Below the pieces are notes generated by a model that worked only from the letters and a program-made list of their open reading frames with translations, had not been told where the DNA came from and did not search any database. A stretch of DNA of 63,896 bases, the filler included, from Collodictyon triciliatum (lineage: Eukaryota), in assembly GCA_043381765.1 (NCBI GenBank). It is 14 parts of 14 records of this genome, joined end to end, with 100 filler letters (N's around TTAATTAATTAA, not from the genome) between each part and the next. Parts side by side here need not be neighbours in the genome. Positions count along the whole stretch, not along the records: positions 32,014 to 36,484 come from JBHJMP010006057.1; 13 more parts are not named here. One strand, given 5' to 3'. Both the position numbers and the translations under genes were made by a program. Within the stretch, counting starts at the first letter, position 1, and the number at the start of each line of letters is the position of its first letter. Shown one piece after another: positions 32,171-36,240 of the stretch.

Positions 32171-35100
32171 ATGGGTGCTTTACCACACTGGCGCCTTGCG
32201 CTATTGTTCTGGGGACTTTTGTGCGACGCAGTGTATTGCGAAGTATCCTCGTTTGGGGCGTATCACTGGCGCTATTCTGCACCGAGATCAGGCCCTGAGA
32301 ACTTTTATGTCGGCACAGATGTCAGTGCTCTTAGTGAACACCTATCTTCACATACTTTCGCAACCCTGCATCAAGATATAATTCTTTATATTAAAGATAT
32401 ATAATGACATTATTCTCCATTTTCATCTATACATACCATTGCGAGACTATCCAAGATTTGAGTTAAAAAATATTCTCTCGAACAGATAAGCCTCGAGTTT
32501 GTCTCCGACGCAGCCGGAAACCTGCATAACAGCAGCCAAATTACTTGGATTATTCCTGCCTCGTGTTCAAAAGCACAGGCGGATGCCACAATTAGAGGAA
32601 ACGCCGTAATCACGGGGAGTCGAACCCTGACTGCAAACTGTCAGCAAAGTGGAGTATTCCTCTTTCAAGTTGGCTTGGTTAGTTTTGTGTTGCCATCAAT
32701 AGGATTAAGATTTATTCAGGTGTATTTCTAGCTATATAAACCTTTTCCCCATCATTTTTATCGATTGCATAACCACACTCAGGTCGATTCTGGCATGATG
32801 GATGAATTTTATGTCACTGTAAAAATTAAACAAGCATGTTTTAGATGGTAGCTTGGCATAATTGTTTTAAATAAAAAAGGCTCTATTTTGAAAAAAAGTC
32901 ATTCCTTAAGTCCGGAAAAATAATCATATTAGTATAATCACATGCTAGCATTTTTGTTTGTGGAATTTAACCACAATTTAAAAGGACTCTTTCCATTACG
33001 GATGGGACTAAGTTGATGTATCTGAGCCCTGGAGTTCAAAGTCAAATTAGAATATGGGTTGTCGATCCCATAACAGCTTCCTATGAAGAAATAAATGGAA
33101 TGGTGCTTATGCCCTCTGCTGAATCATCATCCAGATCTATCACTAGGTTCACGAACCATTCACTTACGTACGCATAAATGATACACTATATGGCTCTAAA
33201 AATAATAATAAAAATACATTTCAATCATTTTATTCAAATATTGTTATGGTAAACCCAGGTGCGTCTTACCCTTCGTATCTTCATTATCACTGATTTATTC
33301 TCAAATTATTCTCTTTTTTTCTTTTCTTTTTATGTGTACTTTAGACAGTTGCAGAGGTTAGGTGAAGCACCAGCTCTATTTGTGAAAGATGCCTCTCATA
33401 ACCTTAACATCGCAGATTTCCCTTCCAATATACATTTCAATGCGACCGAGCTGTACTGGTATTTTAATTACACCCCTTCGCATCCCAATTCGATACACTT
33501 GCAGATTGCAGGTGAAGGAGCAAATTTTCTCGGATGTCATGTTTGTTTTGCAATAGTCATTATTTTTATTATTTTTATTTTTATTATTATTGTCAGGGGT
33601 CAGTATTGCAATTTTTATTTCATTTAAACGCATTAACATTCCATTTCATAATCCTTTTCAATTATATAAATACCGTGTAATTGTGCTATTCGTTAGGTGG
33701 GCCGCACCGATATCATACTGAATGCCCAATTACCGATGTTTGAATTAAAAACACTCGCAAAAGACACATGGCACCAACCACTAACATTGGAAGACTATAG
33801 GCTTCGATACGACTCATGCAGCACAAATCTGATTACTTTGGTTATCGACGGAGCATCGTGCTCAAAATCCTTTCTAATGACAAATGTAATCCAAGCTTTT
33901 ACTAAATCTATGACAGTTTTATTTTCAATAATTAAATCTTGAGTATTTTTTATGGTCGATTCGACAACGTTATGTATTACATTTTTTTTTAAAAATCTTT
34001 GGTGAACATCGAGCTGTTTATGTTAATTTATCATACATTATTAAAGGACCAGTTCGTCACTTCCACTTTCATAACCGTCGATTCCATGAATATTTGTTTG
34101 AAAGATTTGTGGCCCCGTCAGTCAGGGTTGGGCTTTTTCCTCGATAAATGATCAAATTGCAGCATCTCTTTTCTCCATCTTTTAAATTTCTACTCCTATG
34201 ATATACTCACAACCATTATTTGTGATATTATCAGATAACTGATTTTCTCCAAACTATTAACTTTGGTAGATACTTTGTTGTTTTGGATGATATGGGAACT
34301 CTCCATCTGACCAATGATTTCCAAGAATTCAGACAATTCTTAAATAATACCACTCCACTTCCCAAAGTTACACGAGTCAGAGCAAATGATGCATGCGATT
34401 CCATATACGAGAGCGACTCTGTTTTAGAATCAACTTTAAACGATGTGAAGTCTTTTTTCTTCATTATTTTAGCTTAAAGTGATTATTCAAGATGATATAA
34501 TACTTTGCTGATAAAAAAAAAGTAAAATGATTAAAAAAAAGCCTCAATCCGTGTGAATTGAAAATGTAGATCTTACTTGCGTGGGATGATTCTATGGAAG
34601 TTACCTCATTTTACGTTCTGAATGAGAAGGATAAATCTGTTATTGATGTGATTTTTTTGCTCATTAACATATATAACTTTTTTCGATTTATTGCTTAAAA
34701 TTTAGATGATTCAGCACCCTACCAAAACATAAAATTATTGCATTTAGATTAAGCTTCCAGAAGACTCCCTCATTATGGATATCATGATACAAACAAGCTT
34801 GCCCTATTATGTGGTCTTGGCCTCAAATCGTAATCAGTCCAAGCTGCTGGTGTACAATTACAAAGTATGTGTGCTTCGTTACAGACACCGATTCCGTGCA
34901 TTGATAATGTATACACCTGATAACTGTTTGTCGAAATGTTCAGAGCTTTAATAGTTTCGATGGAAAAAAGAAGGGGTTAAAATTTTGACTTTTTTTTTCT
35001 TAAAAAAAAGCTTCAAGACTGGTCTCCCTCGCCACCCTACATCTTTCCAAAGGATAAAATAATTCATGTGCGCCTTCTGTGATTATTATGCCTAATACTC

Positions 35101-36240
35101 GAATAATAATAATAACACTCATCAATGTCTTCATTCGAGAACAACTTTGTTAAAAATGACCACGTTATCACCCACTTCTTTCGTATAATAATAATAATAA
35201 TAATAATAATAATAATAATAATAATAATAATAATAATAATAATAATAATAATAATAATAATAATAATAATAATAATAATAATAATGATAGTGATAATGAT
35301 CATTATGATGATAATGATAATGATAATGATAATGCTGTGAATAGATTAAGGCACTCAAAAATTTGATTTTTTTTTATTCTTCCTTTCAATTTTGTGCAGG
35401 ATGGTGGAGATGTTGGCGCATCCAAAAATTTGATGAAATCAACCAAATCAACATCAGCTGAGGGATTCATATATGGAGACAGTATTTTTTATAGGTATGA
35501 TTGAATCCATCACTTTATTATATGTGAATATTATTTAATGTATACCTACATACAATTTAACTTAGTTAACAGGTCACGATGGTATAATTCATGGTTTATA
35601 TTTTCAACACACTCTTAATTATTTTTTCTTAGCCCTGATGGTGGATATTCAGCATATGAAATCAACCTACTGTCCAGGAAATCTAGCGAAGGCGGCCTGA
35701 AAGCTGTATTCTTATATTAATTAATTTTTTCTTTAAAAAAAAAGAAGTTAAACAACATTCATTGCCATCCATGGTTTTTGTATGGTAGAGGCCTTATTTA
35801 TAACGAAATTCATCATCGTGTATAATGCAGGGGGAGTATATCAAAGATGTTCAAACATCAACTATTGGGGAGTTCTGGGCATTGACCTCACTCAATCGAA
35901 TATTTTCTGGGGCTGTAACTTCAAAAGAGATGATTGAGATTCAGGTTGTTTTGAATAATTAATATAATAACCGATTTTTTTCTTCATCTTTCAAAGTGCC
36001 ATACAAATTCGACAAATGCGACCTATGAAATAATCTGAATGATTCCAACACATTTTATTGTAATATCTATCCAATCAAAACATTTTTTTTTATTGTCAGT
36101 CTGGCGCTCCAAAATCCATCCCTATGTTTATATTCTCAAGAACAGATGGAGTCCTTCTCTCTGTAACCCCCCAAAATTCGGTTAGCGATGCTCATATTAA
36201 GACCATGAAAATTTATTTTCCTCGACTCTATTCCAGTATG
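32171..36240 (+). CDS. CATSPERE: CatSper auxiliary subunit epsilon-like protein (signal peptide plus large ectodomain), 3'-partial
   Basis: Exons 32171-32320, 32486-32668, 32783-32847 and later ones splice in frame to signal peptide-WRYS...ISLEF...WIIPASC...CQQSGV...CFRW...IWVVDP...QLQRLGEAP...IAGEGANFLGC...YDSC...TNDQF. This is colinear with human CATSPERE as recalled from memory. Exons past ~34100 are less certain. Confidence 0.72.

Follow-up and report, generated by a model that had tools for sequence, protein, structure and literature searches.

A putative CATSPER epsilon-family gene, truncated at the end of an assembly piece

The stretch of DNA analysed here (the window, 63,896 nucleotides) joins 14 assembly pieces by artificial linkers, and the piece at positions 32014–36484 carries a plus-strand gene of 16 exons and 15 introns, running from an ATG at 32171 to the end of the piece at 36484. 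Judged from sequence comparison, this piece probably encodes an orthologue of CATSPER epsilon, from its start to about two thirds of its length. Mouse epsilon has one membrane span and a large extracellular region. With beta, gamma and delta, it makes up the canopy that covers the calcium pore of CatSper, built of four subunits, in the sperm flagellum. No ion channel known is more complex than CatSper, which is also a target in fertility and contraception research. Membership of the epsilon family is supported by a direct but subthreshold match to the domain CATSPERE_NTD2 and by a strong indirect route through a protein of the protist Diphylleia rotans. The gene itself is real: its transcripts, from a public sequencing run presumed to be RNA, are spliced.

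Family membership and the Diphylleia rotans intermediate

The read-through of exons 4–6 was searched against 1,835,955,588 representative proteins, and a single protein, P0122, matched with an expectation value (E) of 0.001 or less (E 7.3e-5, 38.9 bits, 33% identity, in three stretches). Its cluster has four members, each a Diphylleia rotans transcript from EukProt. The Diphylleia proteins (EukProt EP00002 P013838–P013843, here P0122–P0125) are unannotated open reading frames (ORFs) of a transcriptome. For comparison with them, the exons of the window gene were joined by coordinate in a script, and the resulting product was then aligned. Residues 24–651 of this spliced model aligned to residues 27–644 of P0124, the 985-residue isoform, with 32.7% identity over 649 amino acids (326 bits, E 1e-103), while the highest score among 200 shuffles of the model was 26.9 bits. 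In a translated search of the window with P0124 (tblastn), seven colinear pieces were found on 32014–36484 (E 4e-8 to 0.11), and elsewhere in the window there were four weak, scattered matches (E 0.15–6.2).

The Diphylleia protein is clearly a member of the epsilon family by its sequence matches. P0122 matched the Pfam families CATSPERD-E_C with 75 bits (cut-off 27.4) and CATSPERE_NTD2 with 35.3 bits (cut-off 27), and P0124 matched mouse epsilon (7eeb_H) with E 3.4e-40 and 141 bits, in the stretches 69–198/76–193 and 526–981/513–965 (Diphylleia/mouse). Residues 526–644 of the Diphylleia protein, which are aligned to exons 13–16 of the window gene, are part of the stretch that matches mouse epsilon with 113.9 bits, and its hydrophobic C-terminal span is aligned with the mouse membrane segment. 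A language-model atlas, which serves as a lead only, places the first 645 residues of the Diphylleia protein closest to clusters of epsilon proteins with NTD1, NTD2 and Beta-prop_CATSPERE (score 0.88); CatSper auxiliary subunits made up all ten of the rows listed, several of them chordate clusters. A word-based search with the Diphylleia protein as query returned its own cluster only, and one with exon 5, against longer proteins, yielded six candidates, none of them scoring.

The window gene and the Diphylleia proteins are colinear throughout the part present, with cysteines and motifs in common and leaders of equal length. At one-third identity, they are not the same sequence at genus level. 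The Diphylleia protein is complete (951–985 amino acids, with C-terminal domain and membrane span), while the window gene is cut at the end of its piece. Corresponding motifs in the window gene, the Diphylleia protein and mouse epsilon are, respectively, CFRW, CFEW and CYLW; IWVVDP..AS, IWIIDR..AS and IWVYDP..AS; and TCPF, YCPY and WCPY. The earlier note had proposed a CatSper-epsilon-like subunit on the strength of ten short strings compared with the human protein, and its identification is borne out by the alignment to Diphylleia. All ten strings are present in the window, in exons of one plus-strand gene: WRYS in exon 1; ISLEF, WIIPASC and CQQSGV in exon 2; CFRW at the junction of exons 3 and 4; IWVVDP in exon 4; QLQRLGEAP and IAGEGANFLGC in exon 5; YDSC in exon 6; and TNDQF at the junction of exons 6 and 7. 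For five of the ten (WIIPASC, CQQSGV, CFRW, IWVVDP and QLQRLGEAP), mouse epsilon has counterparts in the same aligned places (vswkipesc, hckragi, cylwy, iwvydp and kqmntlgqrp).

Direct likeness to mammalian epsilon is weak, and would be insufficient alone. In a Pfam scan of ten ORF translations, one matched a CatSper family: the ORF of exon 4 matched CATSPERE_NTD2 (PF22843) with E 2.2e-4, its only family match. A profile comparison with CATSPERE, which the earlier note had recommended, did bring up the family, but the score of 21.6 bits is below the Pfam cut-off of 27. The NTD2-like domain is split over exons 3–5, and the exons were scanned singly. Of six single-frame read-throughs compared with Pfam, in which stops were written as X, only the one of exons 4–6 repeated the NTD2 match (E 8.7e-4). 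Matches to DUF3732, DUF835 and DND1_DSRM in the ORF scan (E 0.003–0.12) look like noise.

Several other points, besides the subthreshold score of the NTD2 match, weigh against an epsilon orthologue or its placement. Exons 2, 4 and 5 and the read-through of exons 4–6 gave no match to solved structures at E of 10 or less. No exon matched the Pfam families for NTD1 (PF22841), the epsilon beta-propeller (PF22844) or the Ig-like domain, and the Diphylleia protein likewise lacked NTD1, propeller and Ig-like Pfam matches at E of 0.01 or less. The window includes neither the C-terminal domain nor the membrane span, and the 33% identity to Diphylleia is insufficient to place the source.

That the likeness is due to chance, or that there is no gene at all, would be in keeping with the failure of the direct pairwise searches against mouse epsilon. 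The transcripts are spliced, however, the frame is open across 16 exons, and the alignment to Diphylleia reaches more than any of the shuffled models, so that we regard this explanation as refuted, with next to no probability left to it.

As to which of the two related subunits is the closer, the question was addressed through the Diphylleia intermediate, and the window gene appears closer to epsilon than to delta. The C-terminal CATSPERD/E domain is common to epsilon and delta (PDB 7EEB chain G), and the match of P0124 to delta (E 2e-17, 66 bits) covers residues 798–978 only, at the C-terminus, a part that is absent from the window; none of the 651 residues encoded in the window match delta. 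With mouse epsilon (PDB 7EEB chain H; 9UBW chain H), the window gene has the NTD2 match of exon 4 in common, and the NTD2 and later CP(Y/F) motifs align via Diphylleia, but there is no direct pairwise match and the identity is too low for direct measurement.

Exons, introns and transcripts

The gene model was first built by eye from the sequence, and public contigs were then compared with it. Contigs of four public sequencing runs were aligned to 32100–35180, up to an AAT repeat; two of the runs, X1 and X3, are presumed to be RNA, the kind of run having been guessed. One 1180-base X1 contig omits introns 1–7 with borders exactly as predicted, and further X1 contigs omit introns 8 and 10, which brings the total to nine joints, all of them GT..AG. 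A loose X1 contig end at 35068 continues with letters matching 35401 onward and supports intron 11. The earlier observation that fragments not visible as one ORF splice into a single protein is borne out by these nine joints and the loose end. For introns 9 and 12–15, the basis is GT..AG sites, the reading frame and the homology alignment. The introns are 100–332 bases long, with a guanine and cytosine (GC) content of 0.271, compared with 0.422 in the coding sequence. One X1 contig starts with GTATCAACGCAGAGTACATGGG, which we take to be a SMART-type template-switch oligo and which would fit complementary DNA. With 17 differences from the window in about 970 exon bases, X1 comes from a close relative or another strain. 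Run X3, apparently from a different organism about 97% identical here, has joint 1 in common with X1 and retains intron 2 (32678–32782), as an unspliced precursor or through a strain difference.

A pyrimidine-rich tract and 3' splice acceptor occupy 32100–32164 on the plus strand, with the AG at 32163–32164. The X1 contig fits the piece from 32164 on, and upstream of this position it has 97 letters that do not. These letters point to an untranslated 5' exon off the piece; a trans-spliced leader is the less likely source.

Exon 1 (32171–32320) contains the ATG, the hydrophobic leader and the start of the N-terminal domain; its joint (32319>32486) was found in X1 and X3, and it aligns to Diphylleia residues 27–53. 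The leader of about 23 hydrophobic residues resembles a signal peptide by eye and is in the same position in the Diphylleia protein. It is followed by FGAY.W.YS.P.S.P, common to both, and the proposed start at 32171 is correct. Exon 2 (32486–32677, 64 codons) covers the region of N-terminal domain 1, and exon 3 (32783–32847) begins the NTD2-like region, the CF.W motif lying across its junction with exon 4; both are backed by joints and alignments. Exon 4 (32985–33146), with joints and the PF22843 match, is the core of the CATSPERE_NTD2-like domain. Exon 5 (33345–33540), also with joints, gave the best stretch of the P0122 match. Exon 6 (33697–33885) is backed by joints and alignment, and exons 7 (34047–34126) and 8 (34270–34444) by joints.

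The 5' end of exon 9 (34570–34647) is fixed by the joint 34444>34570 and by alignment, and its 3' end by GT and frame only. Conversely, exon 10 (34748–34864; tblastn E 0.001) has the joint 34864>35011 at its 3' end, and AG and frame only at its 5' end. Exon 11 (35011–35067) begins at that joint and ends at the loose end at 35068, which also supports the 5' end of exon 12 (35400–35494); the 3' end of exon 12 is given by GT and frame, and the exon is aligned. The next three exons are predicted ones. Exon 13 (35633–35705) is based on GT..AG, frame and the Diphylleia alignment, exon 14 (35831–35944) is the best conserved of all (tblastn 48.7% identity, E 2.4e-7), and exon 15 (36100–36180), chosen by model scores, has an alternative donor at 36235. 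Exon 16 (36356–36484) is cut by the end of the piece and matches Diphylleia 609–644 (tblastn E 1.9e-4).

Depending on the junction of exons 15 and 16, the open spliced frame has 651–667 codons. With the junction 36180/36356, the product has 651 residues and aligns to the Diphylleia protein with 326 bits and 52 gaps; with 36235/36363, it has 667 residues, 318 bits and 70 gaps, and the former is preferred on these alignments. The end proposed in the earlier note, 36240, is too early, as the further exon (from 36356 or 36363 to 36484) continues the match to Diphylleia. Neither product contains a stop, and the frame runs off the piece at 36484. The gene is truncated at about residue 651 of an expected 950–985, that is, after about two thirds, with the C-terminal domain and membrane anchor outside the piece. 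In metagenome contigs, a protein-pattern scan for the 3' continuation gave 596 matches, none of them a relative, and an exact 24-base scan gave none.

Source organism and proposed role

Contigs from freshwater and lake metagenomes match the piece with 0–1 differences in 151–250 bases, so the organism or a close relative lives in fresh water. Diphyllatea are freshwater organisms, according to the available part of the source (PMC11603278). The source of the gene is probably not an animal, given that the sole relative found is a protist protein, and it would be a freshwater flagellate, possibly related to Diphylleia (CRuMs). A place within CRuMs is a narrower proposal, to which we give somewhat less than an even chance.

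The family assignment would stand equally if the source were a small freshwater animal and the gene its ordinary sperm CatSper epsilon, which we consider quite unlikely. In its favour, CatSper is known chiefly from animals, introns are numerous (15 for a coding sequence of about 2 kb), and the pieces abound in microsatellites and carry reverse transcriptase fragments resembling long interspersed nuclear elements. On the other hand, no animal protein was found at E of 0.001 or less among the 1.84 billion representatives, whereas a protist protein reached it, and this even though public data include many animal epsilons. Animal splice donors usually have a purine at position +3, and here purines and pyrimidines were found at this position in eight and seven of the 15 introns, respectively, a pattern unusual for animals. 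The last exon of the AP-complex mu gene on another piece also speaks against an animal, as it is four residues shorter than the mammalian AP-2 mu chain (30 versus 34), an argument that supposes the longer AP-2 mu form to be present in all animals. This gene (36600–37991, plus strand) is represented by its 3' half, beginning mid-gene directly after the linker, and its last exon aligns without gaps to AP-1 mu.

It had been suggested that the organism could be placed with PRP43, AP2M1 and PHB, but the AP mu and DEAH-helicase exons carried no taxonomic signal. The gene called PRP43 (50291–54759, plus strand, many short exons) is indeed a DEAH-box helicase gene, although Prp43 was not singled out by the exon tested, which scored 74–84 bits on Prp2, DHX16, DHX8, DHX15 and Prp43 alike. 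A divergent gene for the largest subunit of RNA polymerase is found on the minus strand at 22871–27342 (for example 25466–26356, 23073–23390 and 23817–24107). Its 297-amino-acid exon was 41–57% identical to the RPB1s of animals and fungi alike, without taxonomic signal, and it may belong to a paralogue or to a fast-evolving lineage, the identity being much lower than expected for a true RPB1.

The encoded product consists of the leader and about 630 residues predicted to be extracellular, colinear with the Diphylleia protein. Beyond the piece, the C-terminal third would carry the CATSPERD/E domain and one membrane span. By homology, the protein would reside in the flagellar membrane as the epsilon pillar of a canopy, where it would scaffold and regulate a Ca2+ channel of the CatSper type, and this channel would steer flagellar beating. 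In mouse, the pore is overlain by the canopy, and when delta or epsilon is lost, CATSPER1 is reduced and the sperm tail has no channel, as described in the available part of the source (PMC13484710). Mouse epsilon is sperm-specific, while the transcript of the window gene is from a probably unicellular organism. The earlier note had raised the possibility of a flagellate or gamete stage; one reading, to which we give somewhat less than an even chance, is a deep-branching freshwater flagellate (CRuMs, near Diphylleia and Collodictyon) in which the gene is transcribed in ordinary swimming cells, not gametes.

Alternatively, the gene could encode an epsilon-like ectodomain protein of conserved fold that works independently of a CatSper pore, for example a cell-surface adhesion or receptor protein. 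The ectodomain is all that is visible in the window, and the extracellular regions of CatSper proteins change rapidly and show little conservation, as stated in the available part of Chung et al. 2017 (PMC5362262). The closest relative, however, has retained the CATSPERD/E C-terminal domain, and a hydrophobic span at its C-terminus lines up with the membrane segment of the mouse protein; in the same source the origin of epsilon is as ancient as that of CatSper1–4, beta and gamma, with a pattern of loss equal to that of beta and gamma. A protein without the pore is unlikely in our view, and we keep to the channel subunit as the probable role. Among ten large ORFs sampled on other pieces, none encoded a channel, no search having been aimed at pore subunits, beta, gamma or EFCAB9. 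These ORFs comprised a protein kinase, a WD40 propeller, a reverse transcriptase fragment and a Myb domain, and the other six had no match.

That epsilon arose before animals, a point on which the earlier note took the gene to bear, is not new. The available part of the survey of 17 eukaryotes by Chung et al. 2017, among them Thecamonas, Allomyces, Aurantiochytrium and Salpingoeca, already places the origin of epsilon before the unikont/bikont split, has delta arising later than epsilon, and describes a lineage-specific loss of epsilon patterned like that of beta and gamma in the species surveyed (PMC5362262). A full-text literature search pairing CatSper with Diphylleia found nothing, and in one pairing CatSper with CRuMs-related terms, CatSper was absent from the best-ranked 10 of 133 papers. 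The lineage may be new for the epsilon family, in which case one more lineage is added to a published picture that is otherwise unchanged and the kind of family is already known. If the reading of a CRuMs flagellate is true, the full epsilon architecture, with both N-terminal domains and the propeller, would already have existed close to the root of Amorphea plus CRuMs, where a CatSper channel with a canopy would have steered cilia long before there were sperm. The origin of the canopy is known only from surveys of presence and absence in a few protists. With the window gene and the unannotated Diphylleia homologue, two divergent sequences, about one-third identical, would make the truly constrained canopy residues visible, and they suggest organisms that would allow work on the channel in free-living cells.

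Composition of the window

The 14 assembly pieces are 4467–4478 bp each and are arranged from longest to shortest. Between them are identical 100-nucleotide linkers (44 N, TTAATTAATTAA and 44 N), artificial and non-genomic, at 4479–4578, 9056–9155, 13627–13726, 18199–18298, 22771–22870, 27343–27442, 31914–32013, 36485–36584, 41055–41154, 45622–45721, 50191–50290, 54760–54859 and 59328–59427. The one at 36485–36584, without strand, lies directly 3' of the piece with the epsilon-like gene, which has 4471 bp and a GC content of 0.342. This layout fits contigs of a fragmented assembly that were sorted by size and then concatenated. Because the pieces were joined artificially, gene neighbourhood across linkers is meaningless. 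The AP mu and prohibitin genes are on the next piece (36585–41054) and the DEAH helicase on 50291–54759, so that PRP43, AP2M1 and PHB are no neighbours of the epsilon-like gene and are physically unlinked to it, on other pieces with artificial linkers between.

No Rfam family was found in the window. Among the protein-coding features of other pieces, the protein kinase domain is encoded by an intron-free ORF at 3431–4312 (minus strand), and an intron-free ORF of 312 amino acids at 6425–7360 (plus strand) encodes seven WD40 repeats in near-identical tandem units. Reverse transcriptase fragments of one family are present on different pieces, at 11415–11846 (minus strand; Pfam RVT_1, E 1.6e-14) and at 40624–41054 (plus strand). 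Microsatellite types also recur across pieces, with ATTGT near 38580 and 59200 and AAT at 35185 and 62300. The shared reverse transcriptase family and the microsatellites are a hint that the pieces derive from one genome.

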